Shown: positions 8,907 through 22,239 of the stretch, piece after piece
Numbering within the stretch: the first letter of the stretch is position 1
How the letters are laid out: every line of letters starts with the position of its first letter
Source: an uncultured Erysipelotrichaceae bacterium
Lineage (GTDB): Bacteria; Bacillota_I; Bacilli_A; Erysipelotrichales; Erysipelotrichaceae
DNA: 23,040 nt
Direction: 5' to 3'
NCBI GenBank assembly: GCA_964457525.1
Contig: CAYWGS010000016.1
Location: 1 to 23,040 of the forward strand
The notes under the pieces: generated by a model
The model's input: the letters and a program-made list of their open reading frames with translations, nothing else
Database searches by the model: none
What the model was told of the DNA's origin: nothing
Made by a program: the position numbers and the translations under genes

Positions 8907-9272
8907 ATGGTGTATCACGTAGGACAAATAGTTGAAGGACAAATAACTGGTATAAAGCCTTATGGTGCATTTGTTAGCATTGATGCGAACACATCAGGAT
9001 TGATTCATATCTCAGAGTTGTCAGATGGTTTTGTGAGAGATGTAGAACTGTTTGTAAAGTTAGGAGAAAAGGTTAAGCTAAAGGTTCTTGAGATTGATCA
9101 AGAGAATCAACAGTTAAGATTATCTCTAAAGGCTTTACAATCCAATTCACGTAAAACAAGGCCTAGAATCAAACCGATTATTAAGTTAAGAGATAAGATT
9201 GGTTTTGCCTCATTGAAGGCACAACTCAATGGATGGATTAAGGAAGCACAAAAGGAGAAACACCATGATTAA
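8907..9272 (+). CDS. S1 RNA-binding domain protein (YabR/GSP13-like)
   Basis: VGQIVEGQITGIKPYGAFVSI....GLIHISELSDGFV is a canonical S1 OB-fold. The tail is basic. Confidence 0.85.
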   Translation: MVYHVGQIVEGQITGIKPYGAFVSIDANTSGLIHISELSDGFVRDVELFVKLGEKVKLKVLEIDQENQQLRLSLKALQSNSRKTRPRIKPIIKLRDKIGFASLKAQLNGWIKEAQKEKHHD

Positions 9273-10539
9273 GTTAGATTTATCGTATGCTCATGTCGAA
9301 AATGAATTAAGTAATTACCAAAATGAAGTGTCTCATTATCATAAACAATTAGTTGAAAAAACGGGTTTAGGAAATGATTATGTTGGATGGTATACATGGC
9401 CAACAGATTATGATAAGACTGAGTTTAATAAAGTTAAAGAATTAGCGAAGATGATTCGTGAGAATGCGGATACTTTAATTGTATGTGGTATTGGTGGTTC
9501 TTATCTTGGATCAAGAGCTGCGATTGAGATGGTACAAGGTTTATTCCCAAACCGTGATATTGATATTTATTTCGTGGGAAATACATTCTCATCGACGTAT
9601 ATTATGCAGTTATTAGAAAAAGTTAAAGATCGTAATGTTTATGTCAATGTTATTTCAAAATCAGGCACAACCACTGAAACGGCAATGGCATTTAGATTAT
9701 TTAAACATTTCTTAGAAAATAAATATGGGGCTGAAGAAGCACGTAAACGTATTATTGCGACAACCGATAAAGCACGTGGAACACTTAAGAACTTCGCAAC
9801 CAACATGGGTTATGAAACATTAACCATTCCAGATGATATTGGTGGTCGTTATTCTGTATTAACATCCGTTGGTTTATTACCAATTGCGGTTGCAGGGGTA
9901 GATATCGATGCGATGATGAAGGGTGCTTATGATGCGTCCATTGCTTATGCAAGTGAAGAGATTGCGAAGAATGATGCATATAAATATGCAGTAAGTCGTC
10001 GTATTCTTGAAAAACAAGGTAAGAATATTGAGTTGTTTGTAAGTTACGAATCACACTTATCGATGCTAGCTGAATGGTGGAAACAATTGTTCGGAGAATC
10101 AGAAGGTAAAGAAAATAAAGGCTTGTTCCCGGCATCGGTTAACTTCTCAACCGATCTACACAGCATGGGTCAATTTGTTCAAGAAGGCTCTAAAGATCTA
10201 TTTGAAACACTCGTTTTAATTGAGAAACCAAATCTTGATATGGTATTCCCAAGTGATAAGGATGACTATGATCAAATGAACTACCTCAGTGGTAAAACCT
10301 TAGATCAAGTCAATAAATCAGCCGCATTAGGTACCTTACAAGCGCATCATGATGAAGGTGGTATTCCAAATATTATCTTGAATCTTGAAGATACAAGTGC
10401 TTATAGTTTTGGATACTTAGCTCAATTTATGTTTATTGCTTGTGGTATGTCTGTGTATTTGTTGGGAGTTAATCCATTTAATCAACCAGGTGTTGAAGTC
10501 TATAAAAAGAATATGTTTAGACTTCTTGGTAAAAAATAA
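9265..10539 (+). CDS. pgi: Glucose-6-phosphate isomerase (short Firmicute type)
   Basis: Start taken at MIKLDLSY (ATG 9265) because AAAGGAG at 9251-9257 fits it. The track start at 9229 lies inside the S1 gene and has no RBS. PGI motifs are present: GIGGSYLG, ISKSGTTTET, GGRYSVL, GESEGK. Confidence 0.93.
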   Translation: MIKLDLSYAHVENELSNYQNEVSHYHKQLVEKTGLGNDYVGWYTWPTDYDKTEFNKVKELAKMIRENADTLIVCGIGGSYLGSRAAIEMVQGLFPNRDIDIYFVGNTFSSTYIMQLLEKVKDRNVYVNVISKSGTTTETAMAFRLFKHFLENKYGAEEARKRIIATTDKARGTLKNFATNMGYETLTIPDDIGGRYSVLTSVGLLPIAVAGVDIDAMMKGAYDASIAYASEEIAKNDAYKYAVSRRILEKQGKNIELFVSYESHLSMLAEWWKQLFGESEGKENKGLFPASVNFSTDLHSMGQFVQEGSKDLFETLVLIEKPNLDMVFPSDKDDYDQMNYLSGKTLDQVNKSAALGTLQAHHDEGGIPNIILNLEDTSAYSFGYLAQFMFIACGMSVYLLGVNPFNQPGVEVYKKNMFRLLGKK

Positions 10540-14424: not shown

Positions 14425-15924
14425 ATGAAATTTAACTTTAGAGTTTCTCCAAACTATCGTGCTCCTCTAAGCACACAACGCATTATGACTGAATTAACAG
14501 TTTGTATTGCGTTAGTACTTTCTTACTCTGTTTACTTCTATTTTACTAAGATGGGAACAGATTATGGAATTCATGCTTTGTTAATGATTTTAACCGCATT
14601 AGGTACTGCGATTGTTGTGGAAGTTTTATGGGCATTATTCTATAAAAAGAATATCTGGAAACATTTAAATACTTCATTCCCATGGGTTACCGCATTGTTA
14701 TATGTTGGTATGATGGGTGTTAACAAACCACTCTATGTTATCTTTATTGGTAGTTTCATTTCTATCTTTATTGGTAAGTTAGTATTTGGTGGTTTCGGAC
14801 ATAATATTTTCAACCCTGCTGGTGTGGGTCGTGCTGTTTCTGTTTTATCATTCGGTGGATTTATTACGGATAAATTTGCGGATGTTGTGACAGGTGCTAC
14901 ACCTAACCAAGTTATGGAAACATTAGGTTGGGTTATCAAGGATCCAGCGATTGTAACTCAATATTTAGACAGATTTGGTGGTTTGTGGGGCTTAGCGACT
15001 GGCGGTTACGTTGGTGGTTTAGGTGAAACAAACACATTATTAATTTTAGCTGTTGGTATTTACCTTGCTGTTCGTAAGATTATTGACTGGAGAGTTCCTG
15101 CAGTATTCTTAGGTTCATTATTTGCCTTTGCTTCTATCCTTGCAGTTATGAAGGGTATGGGAATTTGGTATCCTTTATTCCACTTAATGACAGGTGGTGC
15201 AATGTTTGGGGCTATCTTTATGATGACTGACCCTGTTACATCTCCAACTTCTATTCCTGGACGTATCTTATTTGCGTTTGGTGTTGCATTCTTGACATTT
15301 ATCATCCGTATCAAAGGAAGTTTACCTGAAGGGGTTATTCGTTCTATCTTATTTATGAATATGATGACTCCATTAATTGATCGTTCATTTGATGGTTGGA
15401 CATTTGAAAAAGTTAAGAAGTATGCCATTTCGTTAACTGTTATTGGAGCATTAGGCTTCTTAACGGTTGGTGTATTTGCGAACCAAGTTGACTATATCGC
15501 GCCAGTTGTTGAAGAAGAACCAGTTGTTACGATTAACTTAAAGGGTGAACCTGTTGTCATTTCTCAACAAACTTCATCAACTGCTGTTATTGTTTCTGAA
15601 ACTGCAGATGGCGATGTTACAACATTTGTTGTTAATATTAATGGTTATGCATTCCAAAGTGATCATGATGATAATCCTCAACCAAATACTTTAGAAGTTA
15701 AAGTTAATACTGCGACTCAAACAATCGAAAGTGTTGCCTATGTAACATTCTCTGATTCTAAGAATATTGGGGATAAGACAAATTCTGACGTATTCTTGTC
15801 TCAATTTGTTGGGGTTTCCATTGTAGATGAAACAGCAAGTGTTGATGTTGTCTCAGGTGCTACAATAACATCTCAATCAGTTGTTAAGGCTGTAAATGCT
15901 GCTATTGCTGCAGCGTTGGACTAG
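14425..15924 (+). CDS. rnfD: Rnf complex subunit D fused to an extra C-terminal TM helix and FMN_bind (RnfG-like) domain
   Basis: The RnfD/NqrB core spans aa 1 to about 325 and carries the flavinylation motif TGAT (nt 14890-14901). It is followed by the helix AISLTVIGALGFLTVGVFA and a roughly 150-aa domain ending in DVVSGATITS (SGAT at nt 15853-15864). Total length is 499 aa. Confidence 0.9.
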   Translation: MKFNFRVSPNYRAPLSTQRIMTELTVCIALVLSYSVYFYFTKMGTDYGIHALLMILTALGTAIVVEVLWALFYKKNIWKHLNTSFPWVTALLYVGMMGVNKPLYVIFIGSFISIFIGKLVFGGFGHNIFNPAGVGRAVSVLSFGGFITDKFADVVTGATPNQVMETLGWVIKDPAIVTQYLDRFGGLWGLATGGYVGGLGETNTLLILAVGIYLAVRKIIDWRVPAVFLGSLFAFASILAVMKGMGIWYPLFHLMTGGAMFGAIFMMTDPVTSPTSIPGRILFAFGVAFLTFIIRIKGSLPEGVIRSILFMNMMTPLIDRSFDGWTFEKVKKYAISLTVIGALGFLTVGVFANQVDYIAPVVEEEPVVTINLKGEPVVISQQTSSTAVIVSETADGDVTTFVVNINGYAFQSDHDDNPQPNTLEVKVNTATQTIESVAYVTFSDSKNIGDKTNSDVFLSQFVGVSIVDETASVDVVSGATITSQSVVKAVNAAIAAALD

Positions 15925-17666: not shown

Positions 17667-17846
17667 ATGGAAGCAGTTCTTTACTTAGCGGCTTTAGGTG
17701 GTTTCTATGGTTTGGTTTATTTCTTAAATCATAAGACTCCTCGTCCTGAAGGGTGTGAAGATATTGAAGCAACTTGTAGTTCATGCTCATTAGGTCATTG
17801 TGGAAATCATCCTTCCCAACAAATTAAGGAGATAAAAAATGCTTAG
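17667..17846 (+). CDS. Unlisted 59-aa single-pass membrane protein with a C-x6-C-x2-C-x4-C cluster
   Basis: MEAVLYLAALGGFYGLVYFLNHKTPRPEGCEDIEATCSSCSLGHCGNHPSQQIKEIKNA. The ATG is 1 nt after the rnfA stop, and the TAG overlaps the rnfB start by 8 nt. It fills an otherwise unexplained 173-nt gap and is below the ORF-track size cutoff. The RBS is weak. Confidence 0.5.
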   Translation: MEAVLYLAALGGFYGLVYFLNHKTPRPEGCEDIEATCSSCSLGHCGNHPSQQIKEIKNA

Positions 17847-18144
17847 TGCAAGTTTAATGATGTTAGTTCTCGGCGCTGCTTTAGGACTATTATTAGCGAT
17901 TGCTGGTAAATTCCTTTATGTAGAAGTGGATACTCGTGTAGAACAAATTACTGGTATGTTACCTGGTTATAACTGTGGTGCTTGTGGTTACCCTGGATGT
18001 GCAGGTTTAGCTGAAGCATTAGTTAATGGTGAAGCTAAGAGTCCTACTCAATGTAAGCCATCTACAGAAGCTCATCGTACACGTATTACGACATTCATGG
18101 AAACAGGTGTCGATCCTCAAGCTGAAACAGCACATGCTCATTAA
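17839..18144 (+). CDS. rnfB: Rnf complex subunit B, minimal form (TM helix plus N-terminal Fe-S domain only)
   Basis: TM helix, then LPGYNCGACGYPGCAGLAEAL...C, the C-x2-C-x4-C-x16-C RnfB N-terminal Fe-S domain. No CxxCxxCxxxCP ferredoxin motifs follow. AAGGAG RBS, and a strong terminator sits immediately after. Confidence 0.8.
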   Translation: MLSASLMMLVLGAALGLLLAIAGKFLYVEVDTRVEQITGMLPGYNCGACGYPGCAGLAEALVNGEAKSPTQCKPSTEAHRTRITTFMETGVDPQAETAHAH

Positions 18145-18146
18145 TT

Positions 18147-18178
18147 AGACAAACTTTAAAAAGTTTGTCTTTTTTTTT
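18147..18178 (+). terminator. Strong rho-independent terminator ending the rnf operon
   Basis: AGACAAACTT-TAAA-AAGTTTGTCT perfect 10-bp stem followed by T8. Confidence 0.85.
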
Positions 18179-18229
18179 ATTTCTTTCAGGTTATTCTATT
18201 TTTTACTCATATATATGAATGAGGTTGAT

Positions 18230-18583
18230 ATGAAAGGGATAATTCAAGCGTATGCATTGTTTGTGTTGTTGATGGGAATTGCTTTAGGATACATGCTTTA
18301 TATTCGAATTGATGAGATGCAATACATGGCACGAATGATTCTTAATCAATCAGTACATGATTCGATGGTAATGCTGGATAAAATGAGTATTGCTGAAAGA
18401 GAAGATCGATTAATTGAAGTTGTTAATGAGAATATCCAACTTAGAGATGAATATGGATTAATCAAACAGGTACAAGTATTGGGGTATCATTTAGAACCAC
18501 TTGCTTTACGTGTAAAGTTGACAGTTAAGTTATCAGATTATGAATGGAATTTTGATGAAACAATGATTGAGGTGGGTTCATGA
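18230..18583 (+). CDS. Membrane-anchored minor-pilin/TadE-like protein (first gene of the Tad-like operon)
   Basis: Start taken at the second ATG (18230), which has GAGGT 4 nt upstream. The product begins MKGIIQAYALFVLLMGIALGYMLYI, then a helix, then beta-rich sequence. It shares architecture and local similarity with the 21878-22216 product. Confidence 0.45.
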   Translation: MKGIIQAYALFVLLMGIALGYMLYIRIDEMQYMARMILNQSVHDSMVMLDKMSIAEREDRLIEVVNENIQLRDEYGLIKQVQVLGYHLEPLALRVKLTVKLSDYEWNFDETMIEVGS

Positions 18584-19284
18584 TAAAGAAGGATAAATTA
18601 TTATTTCTTGGTTTATTTGTTTGTATTATTTTTATTTCATTTGGTATAAGCACACTTTATATCAATCGTGAGCTAGAACTTGTAGAAGTCTATGTAGCGA
18701 AAGATACTCTTGTGGCTCGTACTTTAATTGATCATGACTCAATTACACTTATTAAGGTACCAAAAGCATATTTAAGTGAGAATGTTGTGATGGATAAAGA
18801 AGAAATGTTAGGGAAATATGTAAAGTTGAACACATCCATTCCTAAAGGGAGTCTCATGTATCAATCAAGCTTAGAATGGTTGGATGATGCGATTGATGAA
18901 CCAGCATTACTTCTTAACGCAAATCAAGCTGTATTTGCATTAGATGTGAATATGAGTAGTACTGCAGGTAATTCAATCCAAAAGGGTTCAAAGATTGATT
19001 TGTATGGAACCCTAAAAGTTAATCGAGAAACACTCGTTGATTTATTGTTTAAACAAGTAAGAGTTTTGAGTATTAAGGATAAGAATGGAAATGAAGTTAA
19101 TCAAGAAACCAATCAAGTTCCTAAAATTATGTTAATTGCAGTTGATCAGTATGAAATACCTATACTCACTAAGTTGATTGCGATAGGGGACTTAACCATT
19201 ACTCCAACATCAGAGTTCTTTAGTGATGAAGAATGTATTCTATATGAAGGATCAAGTTTATTAGGATATTTATATGCTCAATGA
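18580..19284 (+). CDS. CpaB/RcpC-like Flp pilus assembly protein (TM anchor plus SAF domain)
   Basis: N-terminal TM helix, then VYVAKDTLVARTLIDHDSITLIKVP (SAF-like). It also has GKYVKLNTSIPKGSLMYQSSL and AVFALDVN...IQKGSKIDLYGTL...VRVLSI, the CpaB block order. ATGA start/stop overlap with the previous gene. Confidence 0.68.
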   Translation: MIKKDKLLFLGLFVCIIFISFGISTLYINRELELVEVYVAKDTLVARTLIDHDSITLIKVPKAYLSENVVMDKEEMLGKYVKLNTSIPKGSLMYQSSLEWLDDAIDEPALLLNANQAVFALDVNMSSTAGNSIQKGSKIDLYGTLKVNRETLVDLLFKQVRVLSIKDKNGNEVNQETNQVPKIMLIAVDQYEIPILTKLIAIGDLTITPTSEFFSDEECILYEGSSLLGYLYAQ

Positions 19285-20278
19285 ATTTGATTTTGGTGTA
19301 ATTCAGAGATTAATTGATGATAATCAAATAACGGATATTAACTACAATGGCAAACAAATATGGGTGGATCATCTTCAAAAAGGAAGATATCCTGTAGAAC
19401 CCTTTATTGCACATGATGCGATTCAAGCACTCGTTTATAAGATTGCGAATTATGTAAATCTTCCATTTAATGCGACCAGTCCTGTATTGGAAGCTGAAAC
19501 AAGTGAACTCAGAATTAGTATCCTACATCCTAGTGTTTCTCGAGGTGGTTTAAGTTTATCCATACGGAAAACACCTTCTGTTTGTCGCTTGCATGATGAA
19601 ATAACGGGGATTAAACATTATGCACCAATTTGGGTTATTGAGTTCTTACAAGAAGCAATTCAAAACAGAAAAAATATTATGATAAGTGGTTTGCCAGGTT
19701 CTGGTAAGACAGAATTTGTTAAATACTTGATGGAGAGTATACCGGCCTTTCAACGAGTTATAACAATCGAAGATAGTTTAGAGTTGCGTTATGGAGATAT
19801 TCATCCAAAAAAAGATCATGTTATGTTAAAGGTTCATGAACACTTTAGTTACGAGAAAGCAATTAAAACGAGTCTTAGACAAAGACCAGATTGGATATGT
19901 GTCTCAGAGATAAGAGGAATAGAAATCATTTATCTCTTGCAAAGTATCTCGACTGGTACAAGTTTAATCAGTACCGTACATGCGGAAAGTGCATATGCAA
20001 TCCCGCATCGAATGATGGTTATGATGCCTGGAACAGACTTAAGTAATCAAAGCATTCATACCATGATACATGATAGTTTGGATTTTGGTGTTCATCTTGA
20101 AGTGGTGACAAGTTCTAGAGGGGTTCAGAGAAGGATTCGTGAAGTTGTTTATTATGATGTGAATGAAGCGTATGAAGGGAAGAAACTTACGATCTATCAA
20201 AAAAATGAGAAAAATAAAAGTATTAAATTTAAACAGTTTATGGAAGATAACCCATTTAATCGAGAATATAACACTTAA
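19274..20278 (+). CDS. TadA/CpaF-family type IV filament secretion ATPase (T2SSE/VirB11 superfamily)
   Basis: Walker A GLPGSGKTE (nt 19688-19714), ITIEDSLEL, Walker B-like DWICVSEIRG, His box STVHA. The N-terminus ITDINYNGKQIWVD is typical of CpaF/VirB11 N-domains. At 334 aa it is short for CpaF. Confidence 0.88.
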   Translation: MLNEFDFGVIQRLIDDNQITDINYNGKQIWVDHLQKGRYPVEPFIAHDAIQALVYKIANYVNLPFNATSPVLEAETSELRISILHPSVSRGGLSLSIRKTPSVCRLHDEITGIKHYAPIWVIEFLQEAIQNRKNIMISGLPGSGKTEFVKYLMESIPAFQRVITIEDSLELRYGDIHPKKDHVMLKVHEHFSYEKAIKTSLRQRPDWICVSEIRGIEIIYLLQSISTGTSLISTVHAESAYAIPHRMMVMMPGTDLSNQSIHTMIHDSLDFGVHLEVVTSSRGVQRRIREVVYYDVNEAYEGKKLTIYQKNEKNKSIKFKQFMEDNPFNREYNT

Positions 20279-20282
20279 AGAT

Positions 20283-20990
20283 TTGACTGTAATTATTTCT
20301 GAGATACTTGTCATTATGCTATTTGGTACTGTGTTTAAATTACCCAATACTTATCAACTAATTCTATTAGGACTATCTTTTATACTTACTCCATTCTTTA
20401 TGCATTATCAGATGCGATGGAAAGAGGAGGAACAAGCCTTCTATGAATTGACGGACTTCCTTCAACAATTCTTAGTTAGTTTTAAACAACATCCTAAGAT
20501 TTATGCATCGCTTCTTGAATCAAGACCGAATACAACAGGAGTTCTAAGAGAACAAGTTGATTGCTGGATAAATCAGCTTGAAATGGGTGTTTACCCTAAA
20601 GAGAGTGCACAAAATTTTGTTAATAAGCAATCTCACTTTATTGTTTCAAACCTCATTCATTTAATGTTAGCGGTAGAGAACTATGGAACATTCAACTACA
20701 TCGAGGGATTAGAAATCATACAGAATGATATCGAAGACTGGATAGAAGATACGACAATCTTCAAGAACGAACAAAAGAGCACAAAGAATCGAATACAGAT
20801 ACTAGCATTATTAGCGTGTGGTATCGCTTGGATTTCACACAATATGTTATTTAAAACAGGATTAATTGAGACCATGAATTTCTATTACTTTAGTTTGTTT
20901 GTGTTCTTGGTCTTGGTACTATTAACACTATTCTTCTCATATAAACTAATCTCAGTCCCATGGATTGATGCGAGTGAGAATCTATGTTGA
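20283..20990 (+). CDS. TadB-like platform protein (single T2SSF-type domain); start uncertain
   Basis: N-terminal TM helices, then a roughly 130-aa helical cytoplasmic block (FYELTDFLQQFLVSFKQ...LESRP...), then C-terminal TM helices. The position is right for TadB. The track start (20163) would overlap tadA by 116 nt. TTG at 20283 and ATG at 20316 are the non-overlapping options, and neither has a good RBS. Confidence 0.55.
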   Translation: MTVIISEILVIMLFGTVFKLPNTYQLILLGLSFILTPFFMHYQMRWKEEEQAFYELTDFLQQFLVSFKQHPKIYASLLESRPNTTGVLREQVDCWINQLEMGVYPKESAQNFVNKQSHFIVSNLIHLMLAVENYGTFNYIEGLEIIQNDIEDWIEDTTIFKNEQKSTKNRIQILALLACGIAWISHNMLFKTGLIETMNFYYFSLFVFLVLVLLTLFFSYKLISVPWIDASENLC

Positions 20991-21730
20991 AGTATCTAGC
21001 CATTCTATGCTTAATGATTTGGGTATTCTTTGACGATAAGGTGTTTGAATTAACACACTACAAGTCCACAAAGTTTATTCAAATCGAAAAGATATTAGGT
21101 TATGAGTGTAATGAAAAATGGTATAAAGATCGATATTTCAAAATAAAGATAATTCGCTATTTAATTTTGTTAGTACTTGTATACGACCCTAAGATTGTTT
21201 TAATTACAGTATTTATTCTATGTTTATTGATTTATTTCTATCCTGTATTAAAACTTAACCAATTCGCTAAATTAAAAATAAGAAGTATTCAATATCACTT
21301 TCCAATTTACTTAAGACAGATTCAAGTATTACTTCAAAATAATACAGTTGTTCGATCAATTGAATTATCCCTAGAATATGTACCTAAAGTATTAAAACCT
21401 GATATTGAACGATTAAATGAGTTAATCAAAGAAGATCCAATGAATAGTCACCATTACATTAATTGCATGAAAGACTACGATTTGATTGAAATACAACGAT
21501 CGATGAAATGGCTTTACCGATACCAGAACTTTGGCTATAAAGATGCGTATTCGCAATTTAATCGTATGTTAATGTCTACATCTAAATGGCTTAGACAATC
21601 ACGAATTGAACAGAAACAGAGTTCAATTCAAGTGTATCAGTGGATGGGAATGTTACCACTTCTTGGTGTAACATTCGTATTTATATCTGCGATGATGAGT
21701 GTTGTAATCTCATTATTTGAAAGGGGGTGA
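20984..21730 (+). CDS. TadC-like platform protein (single T2SSF-type domain)
   Basis: Same architecture as the previous gene. HFPIYLRQIQVLLQNNTVVRSIELSLEYVP resembles the T2SSF helical core. The final TM helix is MGMLPLLGVTFVFISAMMSVVISL. It overlaps the upstream stop by 7 nt. Confidence 0.55.
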   Translation: MLKYLAILCLMIWVFFDDKVFELTHYKSTKFIQIEKILGYECNEKWYKDRYFKIKIIRYLILLVLVYDPKIVLITVFILCLLIYFYPVLKLNQFAKLKIRSIQYHFPIYLRQIQVLLQNNTVVRSIELSLEYVPKVLKPDIERLNELIKEDPMNSHHYINCMKDYDLIEIQRSMKWLYRYQNFGYKDAYSQFNRMLMSTSKWLRQSRIEQKQSSIQVYQWMGMLPLLGVTFVFISAMMSVVISLFERG

Positions 21731-21731
21731 A

Positions 21732-21878
21732 ATGATGAAAGCATTTTTTGAAGAATATGGTTTAGTGTTAGTTGTGACAGTTATTGCGACAGGAATGATT
21801 CTTTTCTCTGAAGGGTTTAAAGAAACGATGCAAGATACGCTTGAGACACAATGGACACAAATGACAGAGATTAACTAA
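21732..21878 (+). CDS. Unlisted 48-aa Flp-like pilin
   Basis: MMKAFFEEYGLVLVVTVIATGMILFSEGFKETMQDTLETQWTQMTEIN. It has an EYGL-plus-hydrophobic core like the Flp motif. AAAGGGGG RBS lies just upstream. TAATG overlap with the next gene. It is below the ORF-track cutoff. Confidence 0.55.
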   Translation: MMKAFFEEYGLVLVVTVIATGMILFSEGFKETMQDTLETQWTQMTEIN

Positions 21879-22216
21879 TGAAGGGGGCATTTGAAACCGT
21901 TATCGTTATGATCTTTGGGATGATGTTTATGGTGATGGGTATTGATTACATGAGAGTAATTCTTCTTAACAACAAGGCTCGTTTATATGCTGAAAACATT
22001 CTAGCGATCGTTGAGAATCAGAATCGTTATGATGCGGATGTAGATGAATTGATTCGTTTAAGTGAGATTCAATGTTCCGTATGTACGTATCAAGTAGAAG
22101 AACATATTGAAGTTGAAAAGCGTTTATGGATTACTGTCACTTATCCAATTGAAATGAATCATTTGAATTACTTTACTTTATCCAAGATAAGATTATTAAC
22201 TAGACCAATCGCTTAG
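21878..22216 (+). CDS. TadE-like minor pilin/pseudopilin
   Basis: The product begins MKGAFETVIVMIFGMMFMVMGI, a short polar start followed by a hydrophobic helix with an early Glu. It lies directly after the pilin gene, as tadE does in Tad loci. Confidence 0.5.
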   Translation: MKGAFETVIVMIFGMMFMVMGIDYMRVILLNNKARLYAENILAIVENQNRYDADVDELIRLSEIQCSVCTYQVEEHIEVEKRLWITVTYPIEMNHLNYFTLSKIRLLTRPIA

Positions 22217-22239
22217 TGCAGGAAACTGCACTTCTTTAT
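22215..22239 (+). terminator. Terminator-like hairpin ending the Tad-like operon
   Basis: AGTGCAG-GAAA-CTGCACT at 22215-22232, followed by TCTTTAT. The U-tract is imperfect. Confidence 0.5.

Follow-up and report, generated by a model that had tools for sequence, protein, structure and literature searches.

Between rnfB and the gene for type III pantothenate kinase (coaX), a 23,040-nucleotide stretch of DNA from an uncultured Erysipelotrichaceae bacterium (GenBank assembly GCA_964457525.1, contig CAYWGS010000016.1; hereafter the window) carries a module of seven plus-strand open reading frames (ORFs) at 18215-22216, here called g1 to g7 (Table 1). The same seven ORFs were called independently on metagenome contigs that carry an identical ATPase. 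They are closely packed, with a 4-nt ATGA overlap of g1 and g2 (18580-18583), overlaps of 11 nt between g2 and g3 (19274-19284) and of 7 nt between g4 and g5 (20984-20990), a gap of 1-4 nt ahead of g6, and a TAATG at 21878 where g6 meets g7. A preliminary description of this DNA had reported seven co-directional genes that overlap or abut, and both the ORF list and the independent gene callers bear this out; its further claim of a single compact operon is upheld for what appears to be a Tad-related type IV filament-like machine.

Table 1. Features of the seven-gene module and its boundaries in the window
Feature	Coordinates	Strand	Product by gene callers (aa)	Assignment	Basis
rnf terminator	18147..18179	+		Intrinsic terminator ending the rnf operon	10-bp stem (18147-18170), 4-nt loop, T-run
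Leader of g1	18180..18229	+		Short leader; possible -10-like element CATATATAT and GAGG ribosome-binding site for g1	Promoter inferred
g1	18230..18583	+	117	Candidate Glu-less minor/initiator pilin-like subunit, 117 aa, MKG and hydrophobic helix	Weakly DUF5411-like
g2	18580..19284	+	234	CpaB/RcpC-family protein, 234 aa; N-terminal transmembrane (TM) helix, SAF-like and RcpC domains	Pfam RcpC
g3	19274..20278	+	334	T2SSE-family hexameric-type ATPase, 334 aa, VirB11/TadA size	Pfam T2SSE 1.6e-25
g4	20283..20990	+	224	Putative TadB-like platform half, 224-235 aa; one N-terminal TM, cytoplasmic helical bundle, two C-terminal TMs	AlphaFold2 (AF2)/Foldseek
g5	20984..21730	+	248	Putative TadC-like platform half, g4 paralogue, 248 aa	AF2/Foldseek, hhalign
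g6	21732..21878	+	48	Flp-like major-pilin candidate, 47-48 aa, (M)MKAFFEEYGLVLVVTVIATGMI..., no leader peptide	Orthologue conservation
g7	21878..22216	+	112	DUF4320-like candidate minor pilin, 112 aa, MKGAFE and hydrophobic helix, CxxC conserved	DUF4320 0.0014
Hairpin	22215..22232	+		Hairpin with weak T tract, after g7 and before coaX	Hairpin scan

The upstream terminator and downstream hairpin that had been described are both present, and relatives carry a hairpin and T-run at the same place as the rnf terminator of the window, on which Rfam gave a sub-threshold match only. Alignment of seven orthologous intergenic regions revealed a conserved TAGG...GCATAnATA...GAGG-ATGAAA pattern ahead of g1, where a consensus promoter scan called no promoter. 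The start of g1 most likely lies at 18230 (MKG...), behind the GAGG, rather than at 18215, and 23 of 23 orthologues start with MK. For g4 the start is either TTG 20283 or ATG 20316, and for g6 it is 21732 or 21735.

The g2 product is a CpaB/RcpC protein, as had been proposed, because it passes the gathering score of Pfam RcpC (PF16976; 1.6e-7, 31.7 bits versus 28.8) and aligns in hhalign at 99.5 % with the annotated CpaB of Bacillus thuringiensis and at 92 % with a proteobacterial CpaB. The SAF match stands at 0.004, and that to TIGR03177, at 4.7e-12, falls below the cut-off. To judge from gene content, CpaB is dispensable in one Erysipelotrichaceae lineage (L024:3836-10004, also L025 and L026), which has no g2 and in which the ATPase gene directly follows g1.

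The motifs of g3 are those of a T2SSE ATPase: the Walker and His-box motifs are intact, Walker A reading GLPGSGKTE, and RQRPDWICVSE and TVHA are conserved. Databases label this ATPase 'CpaF family' and the remaining products of the module hypothetical. It falls far below every relevant NCBIfam cut-off: VirB11 (TIGR02788), the best match, reaches 139 bits against a cut-off of 250, the conjugal TadA model 122 against 373, and TrbB 113 against 305. In the PDB, Brucella VirB11, archaeal GspE2 (2oap) and Caulobacter CpaF match it equally well, at 65-70 bits. A rough neighbour-joining (NJ) tree from BLOSUM distances, which has few references, lacks an archaeal or PilB/PilT outgroup and hence does not resolve deep branching, contains one Firmicutes clade (bootstrap 94) that comprises chromosomal sequences of Erysipelotrichaceae and Lachnospiraceae (95), pLS20-type sequences (100) and B. 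thuringiensis; separate from it are proteobacterial TrbB, VirB11 and CpaF, in a mutual order that the tree leaves unresolved, the CpaF and TadA references being plasmid-borne. The grouping of the ATPase with TadA/CpaF in the preliminary description is thus not borne out, and the contrary placement with VirB11/TrbB that it had considered is not recovered in this tree either.

The two proteins encoded after the ATPase have homologues that databases list, without exception, as hypothetical and without a Pfam domain, and their assignment comes from paralogy and predicted structure. Profile alignment of g4 with g5 by hhalign covers 130 columns with an E value of 1.8e-5. In the confident AF2 models, whose predicted local distance difference test (pLDDT) score is 87 for g4 and 85 for g5, a helical bundle lies between a TM helix at the N-terminus and TM helices at the C-terminus. 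Foldseek matched the g4 model to EpsF, OutF and SpoIIIAB (probability 0.85-0.93, TM-score 0.61-0.66) and the g5 model to EpsF (probability 0.96, TM-score 0.70). EpsF and OutF were matched in their GspF-type cytoplasmic domains, SpoIIIAB is GspF-like, and no other match was specific. These alignments span about 115 residues with a root-mean-square deviation of 3.3-3.8 Å, TM-scores being taken on the target, and have E values of about 1, which small helical bundles usually give.

Searches with the T2SSF family (PF00482) point in the same direction below threshold. In the window g4 scores 0.064 and g5 gives no match; among orthologues, 6 of 36 g4 proteins (best 9.7e-5), 5 of 36 g5 proteins (best 4e-4) and 3 of 60 fused relatives were matched, all below threshold. 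T2SSF is nevertheless the sole Pfam family matched by more than two members of each platform family (best E 1e-4 to 3e-5). Comparison by hhalign of the platform proteins with single canonical TadB or TadC sequences was weak, the best value being 1.5e-3. In clostridial relatives g4 and g5 are fused as one protein of 420-450 aa, with the g5 part behind the g4 part, and a HMMER search with the g5 profile returned 593 cluster representatives that, beyond close relatives of about 250 aa, are mostly proteins of 480-570 aa matched in their C-terminal half. Because of the paralogy, the AF2 models, the GspF-like Foldseek matches and the recurrent sub-threshold T2SSF signal, we read g4 and g5 as a divergent two-repeat platform of PilC/TadBC type, split here like TadB and TadC (PMC6668835). 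Of the TadB/TadC call made earlier, the T2SSF-like fold stands, if weakly, with Foldseek E values of about 1 and HMM matches that stay below threshold.

The short g6 product is the best-conserved of the module. Residues 1-12, MKAFFEEYGLVL, are nearly invariant in 44 distinct orthologues, the start being MKAFFEEYG, and its median identity of 76 %, versus 52 % for the ATPase, is the higher of the two in 44 of 44 loci. Flp pilins are 40-60 aa when mature, consist of α1 only and have conserved Glu5, Tyr6 and Gly7 (PMC10710030); the EYGL core of g6 aligns with annotated Flp and contains this Glu-Tyr-Gly motif. No match of g6 to Pfam Flp (PF04964) was obtained, and hhalign of g6 against a single proteobacterial Flp sequence was weak or uninformative. 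The Flp leader ending in Gly and the G/XXXXEY cleavage site are missing from g6, in which, by comparison with a canonical Flp (...DG/ATAIEYGLF...), only 'MK' stands ahead of the mature-type N-terminus. The Flp-like pilin that had been proposed thus keeps its size and its E-Y-G-L core and loses Pfam Flp membership, the leader and the Gly cleavage site.

The flanking small proteins share this kind of N-terminus. In g7, Glu6 is invariant, the DUF4320 match (0.0014) lies below the gathering score, and hhalign with p40 of the pLS20 type gives an E value of 1.2e-3. The g1 product starts MKGII... and has no conserved Glu; two of its orthologues match DUF5411 at 0.0019. TadE/TadF (PF07811) matched neither g1, nor g7, nor their 67 orthologues, and hhalign against annotated TadE was not significant, so the labels 'TadE-like' and 'minor-pilin-like' given to g7 and g1 find no HMM support beyond these weak matches to DUF4320 and DUF5411. 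M1, K2 and E6 are invariant in g6 and g7, and M1 and K2 in g1; position 3 is Gly in 36 of 44 g7, Gly in 19 of 23 g1, and Ala in 40 of 44 g6 sequences. In 41 of 43 distinct loci g7 has a stop codon 0-8 codons upstream and cannot start anywhere earlier, and the same lack of an earlier start holds for g6 in 24 of 46 loci; MK-(G/A/S) is thus the true start of g1, g6 and g7. If only Met1 were lost, Glu6 of g6 and g7 would become position 5.

A 374-aa protein of Robinsoniella peoriensis (L073:12726-13850) joins an N-terminus of this leaderless pilin type, MKVFIQEYG, to a BspA-type leucine-rich repeat (LRR) domain (LRR_5, 8e-6) and is a candidate pilus-borne adhesin. In the same organism two further short pilins with MKA(F/V)LEEY flank the ATPase and the fused platform.

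Several components expected of a Tad locus or of a conjugation locus are absent. Across four genomic contexts from the host (the window and the identical contigs), Dielma and one further relative, the window and the +/-10 kb around the locus contain neither a TadZ/ParA-like gene nor an A24 prepilin peptidase, in agreement with the absence of both from the locus that had been noted at the outset. VirB4, VirD4, VirB6/8, a relaxase and a cell-wall hydrolase are likewise absent from the 23-kb window and from +/-10 kb in relatives, and comEA, comEC and dprA are not linked to the locus. The genes that flank the module are instead rnf, coaX, opp and fba. A phage module was rejected because PHROGs gave nothing relevant, and the operon DNA has no match in plasmids.

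The module is a feature of the family rather than of this genome. A scan with the ATPase alignment, one genome per species, returned 80 loci, the closest of which (83-86 %) belong to uncultured Erysipelotrichaceae metagenome-assembled genomes; the ATPase family reaches Traorella, a VE202 isolate and Erysipelothrix, and, at 40-45 %, Lachnospiraceae, Eubacterium and Robinsoniella. Dielma fastidiosa also carries the module, and an identical ATPase occurs in 163 metagenome blocks. Searches by tblastn with the seven products and the flanking genes placed the whole module at the same site across the family, Erysipelothrix included, with intact ORFs in 44 loci, rnf upstream in 31 of 58 and coaX downstream in 37 of 58 Erysipelotrichaceae loci. 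The single genes have a G+C content (GC) of 0.30-0.35, the window averaging 0.348, and their GC at third codon positions (GC3) is no lower than in the flanks; the AT-richness ascribed to the locus holds for one 500-nt bin only, 21001-21500, at 0.264 the sole compositional outlier in the operon. The ratio dN/dS is 0.04-0.25 across the module genes against two relatives (0.05 for g6), values that are qualitative only, dS being saturated (>1, with some values undefined). Family synteny, normal GC and GC3, and dN/dS well under 1 thus mark the module, by these comparative measures, as long established in the family core genome, passed on vertically and under selection, and not as a recent island, and a foreign-island origin was rejected on the grounds of family-wide synteny and composition.

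Individual loci depart from the common arrangement. The GC dip at 21001-21500 coincides with the 5' half of g5, which codes for its N-terminal membrane segments. In Dielma (L101:6634-8860) an ABC exporter pair separates rnfB from the module, and downstream a Mga-type regulator and phosphotransferase system genes take the place of coaX, so the flanks of the module are conserved and not fixed. In the lineage without CpaB, rnfB and the module are some 6 kb apart, with unrelated genes in between, namely a sensor histidine kinase, a response regulator, a large membrane protein and two ORFs, the kinase and regulator being LytS/LytTR-like as read from translations only. One strain with an identical operon (L006:14008-19824) has different DNA after coaX, where HTH_38 and HTH_23/28/29 (transposase-like) proteins and a threonyl-tRNA-synthetase-type gene stand in place of the opp transporter, which places a rearrangement breakpoint directly after coaX.

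Outside the chromosomal clade, the nearest ATPase homologues found by tblastn against plasmids (30-32 %) lie on Firmicutes plasmids and are annotated 'CpaF/VirB11 family'. The type occurs in 284 plasmids, including pXO2, pBT9727, and natto, Listeria and Enterococcus plasmids, and 224 of the 284 are typed conjugative. On plasmids of Virgibacillus (L087:8388-12220), Enterococcus faecium (L089:7198-11216) and Listeria (L090:5030-8602) the gene order is a protein of about 130 aa with an N-terminal TM, the ATPase, membrane proteins of about 265 and 245 aa, a DUF4320 protein and a TM protein of about 48 aa; TrbC/VirB2-like, VirD4-like and pLS20_p028-family genes follow downstream, and the Virgibacillus copy of the first protein, when scanned, matched DUF5411 at 2.5e-5. 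This order and these sizes match genes 36-41 of pLS20, of which gene 37 is listed as a putative VirB11 and genes 36 and 38-41 as 'unknown' (PMC8557374). By hhalign, g5 aligns with p39 of the pLS20 type at 90 % and g4 with p38 at only 32 %.

A second plasmid relative is a fuller Tad-like locus. On the pXO1-type plasmid pBMB426 of B. thuringiensis (L088:5968-12953), genes for CpaB and an AAA_31 ParA-like (TadZ-like) ATPase accompany those for a 477-aa ATPase and a pair of membrane proteins. There are also three 67-aa pilins in tandem, whose leader (...SSENG/MLIALAV) is of the normal kind, and genes of the DUF5411 and DUF4320 families lie nearby. Its first platform gene pairs with g4 at 81 % and its second with g5 at 94 % in hhalign, and the cross-pairs are not significant. 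Further downstream are two polytopic hypothetical proteins (181 and 207 aa) that could include an unrecognised peptidase.

Gene order and homology indicate that the part shared with conjugation operons is exactly the filament-like part. The possibility, raised at the outset as one that would count against a Tad assignment, that relatives carry these genes inside a conjugation module is therefore realised in part, since the named Firmicutes-clade ATPases, at 30-32 %, lie in conjugation operons of the pLS20/pXO2/pAW63 type; the locus in the window has no VirB4, VirD4 or relaxase nearby.

The closest known systems include the Tad/Flp (type IVc) machines of Aggregatibacter, Caulobacter and Pseudomonas. 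The module has in common with them a CpaB protein, a T2SSE ATPase, two putative single-repeat platform genes after the ATPase, a helix-only subunit of 40-60 aa with Glu-Tyr-Gly, and a single operon without a retraction ATPase. It differs from them in having no TadZ, peptidase or secretin in the operon, an ATPase without the CpaF N-terminal extension and outside the CpaF clade, a pilin with neither leader nor G/XXXXEY site, DUF4320-/DUF5411-like accessory subunits, and a platform under the T2SSF threshold. The pLS20 genes 36-41 and their equivalents in pXO2/pAW63/pBT9727, Listeria and E. faecium share its ATPase clade (bootstrap 94 in the rough NJ tree), gene order and sizes, but they are set within conjugation operons with VirB4, VirD4 and VirB6, have no CpaB, encode ATPases of 400-470 aa that are only 30-32 % identical to g3, and have small proteins without the MKAFFEEYG signature. 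The pBMB426 locus agrees in CpaB (99.5 %), in orthologous platform pairs and in ATPase clade, whereas it is plasmid-borne, has the TadZ-like ParA ATPase, and its pilins have a 21-residue leader ending in Gly.

Gram-positive tad loci, as in Bifidobacterium breve and Bulleidia extructa (PMC12786226), also belong to monoderm hosts, lack a secretin and encode small pilins, but encode TadV, TadZ, TadB/C and TadE/F/G proteins that can be recognised as such, and leader-bearing pilins; that of Bulleidia is canonical, with 13 genes including tadV, and is reported to be horizontally acquired (PMC12786226), whereas the module described here is syntenic across the family. With archaeal type IV pili, which have a FlaI-like ATPase and a two-repeat FlaJ/TadC-like platform, the resemblance is that g3 is as near to GspE2 (2oap) as to CpaF and that clostridial relatives have the platform fused. 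The archaeal order of platform halves (PMC6668835) is the reverse of that in the clostridial fusions, in which the g4-like (TadB-like) half is N-terminal, and a secondary fusion is therefore more likely; archaeal pilins also differ in having class III leaders, cut by PibD or EppA.

We interpret the operon as encoding a Tad-like (type IVc-related) filament machine, minimal and highly divergent, that belongs to a monoderm and is vertically inherited in the Erysipelotrichaceae, and give this reading a probability of about 0.62. From the observed gene set, homologies, folds, conservation and N-termini we infer filament formation, subunit roles, a lack of processing and a function as follows. A g3 hexamer would dock on a platform of g4 and g5, the equivalent of TadB and TadC, in the cytoplasmic membrane, and the machine would lift the 47-aa helical g6 from the membrane into a thin Flp-type filament. 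The Glu-bearing g7 and the Glu-less g1 may serve as low-abundance priming or tip subunits, and g2 may form an extracytoplasmic collar. In this system, which would have no TadZ, g1, g6 and g7 would be translated in near-mature form, as Met-Lys-small residue, without a class III leader, and for lack of such a leader the system probably needs no dedicated prepilin peptidase. Its most likely role would be adhesion or cell-cell contact in the gut, which we favour because of the LRR fusion in Robinsoniella, because modules of the pLS20 type adjoin adhesin genes (PMC8557374; plasmid loci), and because relatives in the Erysipelotrichales reportedly have, for taking up DNA, a comG system that is separate and has been kept (PMC12786226).

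Several observations weigh against this interpretation. No product reaches threshold in the Pfam or NCBIfam models for Flp, TadE, TadB and TadC, g3 falls outside the CpaF clade in the rough NJ tree, the Foldseek E values for the platform models are about 1, no T2SSF chain came up when the PDB was searched with profiles of g4, g5 and the fused platforms, and the nearest annotated relatives of the ATPase sit in conjugation operons. The absence of processing is open to challenge too, since Gly or Ala at position 3 after Lys resembles a minimal K-G prepilin cleavage site, comG is reported to be vertically inherited in Erysipelotrichales (PMC12786226), so that the genome may encode a ComC-type A24 peptidase at another site, and prepilin peptidases are shared between systems (PMC6668835).

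These last points lead to the same machine assembled from ordinary prepilins with the shortest of leaders (M-K-G/A), cut after position 3 by a peptidase encoded elsewhere, for example ComC of comG. Lys at -2 and Gly or Ala at -1, in the proportions given above, fit the usual prepilin site, loci for MSH pili have no peptidase of their own (PMC6668835), and comG is reported to be widespread in Erysipelotrichales (PMC12786226). Such a cut would, however, put the invariant Glu at +3 and not at +5, removing two residues from the Flp-aligned mature N-terminus; some orthologues or relatives have Met, Ile, Leu, Ser or Val as their third residue; and a 3-residue leader would be far shorter than the long leaders of Tad pilins (PMC10710030). 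Because of the displaced Glu and the variable position 3, cleavage of g1, g6 and g7 by a prepilin peptidase appears doubtful and subunits that need none are favoured, which leaves the short-leader version unlikely but a serious competitor. A descent from type IV secretion, in which a VirB11-type ATPase with membrane partners would serve DNA or protein transfer or mating-pair formation instead of building a Tad-like pilus, and the module would be the domesticated remnant of a pLS20/pXO2-type transfer operon, draws on the size of the ATPase and its top NCBIfam match, on the company kept by its plasmid relatives, most of them on conjugative plasmids, and on the agreement of gene order with pLS20 36-41 (PMC8557374). 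We consider it improbable: the VirB11 score falls well short of its cut-off, the ATPase stands apart from proteobacterial VirB11 and TrbB, the +/-10 kb around the locus contain neither VirB4, VirD4 or VirB6/8 nor a relaxase or cell-wall hydrolase, filaments and not type IV secretion systems have CpaB, GspF-like platforms and a Flp-motif protein as their parts, and pLS20 genes 36 and 38-41 are themselves of unknown function (PMC8557374).

If the proposed Tad-like machine exists, its main task might instead be DNA uptake in natural transformation, as in Micrococcus luteus. Flp/Tad-dependent transformation does exist in a Gram-positive bacterium (PMC4322843), and a chromosomal position in the core genome together with strong conservation would fit a housekeeping-type function. 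The locus is, however, unlinked to comEA, comEC and dprA, relatives are reported to have their separate comG system (PMC12786226), and a clostridial relative carries an LRR adhesin-type pilin fusion, so that uptake as the principal role seems hardly probable. That the operon is a decaying or non-functional relic, a view that could appeal to the lack of a curated family for most products and to the loss of CpaB in one lineage, can practically be set aside, since it is already contradicted by the intact ORFs in 44 loci, the low dN/dS, the 76 % median identity of g6 and the 163 metagenome blocks with an identical ATPase.

What appears to be new, as far as comparison of genes can tell, is a Tad-related machine whose subunits are leaderless, whose platform is divergent and whose ATPase lies outside the CpaF clade, and which has no TadZ. 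The literature consulted yielded nothing on DUF4320, on such Tad systems of Erysipelotrichaceae, on leaderless pilins, or on a pilus or filament role of pLS20 genes 36-41. A broader view can be put forward only tentatively: the module may be a leaderless, peptidase-free type IV filament from an old Firmicutes Tad-like lineage, with the platform split in Erysipelotrichaceae and fused in Lachnospiraceae, that was also recruited into conjugation operons of the pLS20/pXO2/pAW63 type as 'VirB11 plus unknowns'. If this were true, Gram-positive conjugation systems, thought to be pilus-free, would carry a pilus-like or pseudopilus module. The link to pLS20 36-41 and to the counterparts in pXO2/pAW63, Listeria and Enterococcus offers a concrete hypothesis for uncharacterised conjugation genes, and bears on how Gram-positive donors contact recipients. 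To our knowledge, the biogenesis of every type IV filament is taken to require that an A24 peptidase cut off the leader, and a conserved system with subunits that start two residues before the mature-type N-terminus would provide a natural test of why leader cleavage exists. The operon is also a core-genome feature of a common gut family and is present in the cultured Dielma fastidiosa and Erysipelothrix spp., so roles in adhesion or colonisation are directly testable.

The host itself had been suggested to be wall-less or Acholeplasma-like, for which the taxonomy and a neighbouring kinase give no support. A PrkC-type Ser/Thr kinase with a PASTA domain and a PP2C phosphatase (L099:5895-7547) lie 3 kb upstream of the ftsA of the window; this kinase hints at peptidoglycan, and thus at a cell wall in the host, and ftsAZ is not flanked by mur or fts wall genes. 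The rnf operon next to the module has an unusual layout that is repeated in relatives, with an RnfD-FMN_bind fusion (14425-15924) despite a separate RnfG. Its RnfB (17667-18144) has only 101 aa, with the PF04060 FeS domain and without ferredoxin-type 4Fe-4S domains, and is preceded by a conserved Cys-rich ORF of 59 aa with a TM helix. Elsewhere in the window, a 121-aa S1-domain ORF (8907-9272) overlaps the longest reading of the phosphoglucose isomerase gene (9229-10539), for which gene callers choose a later start that gives a product of 424 aa.

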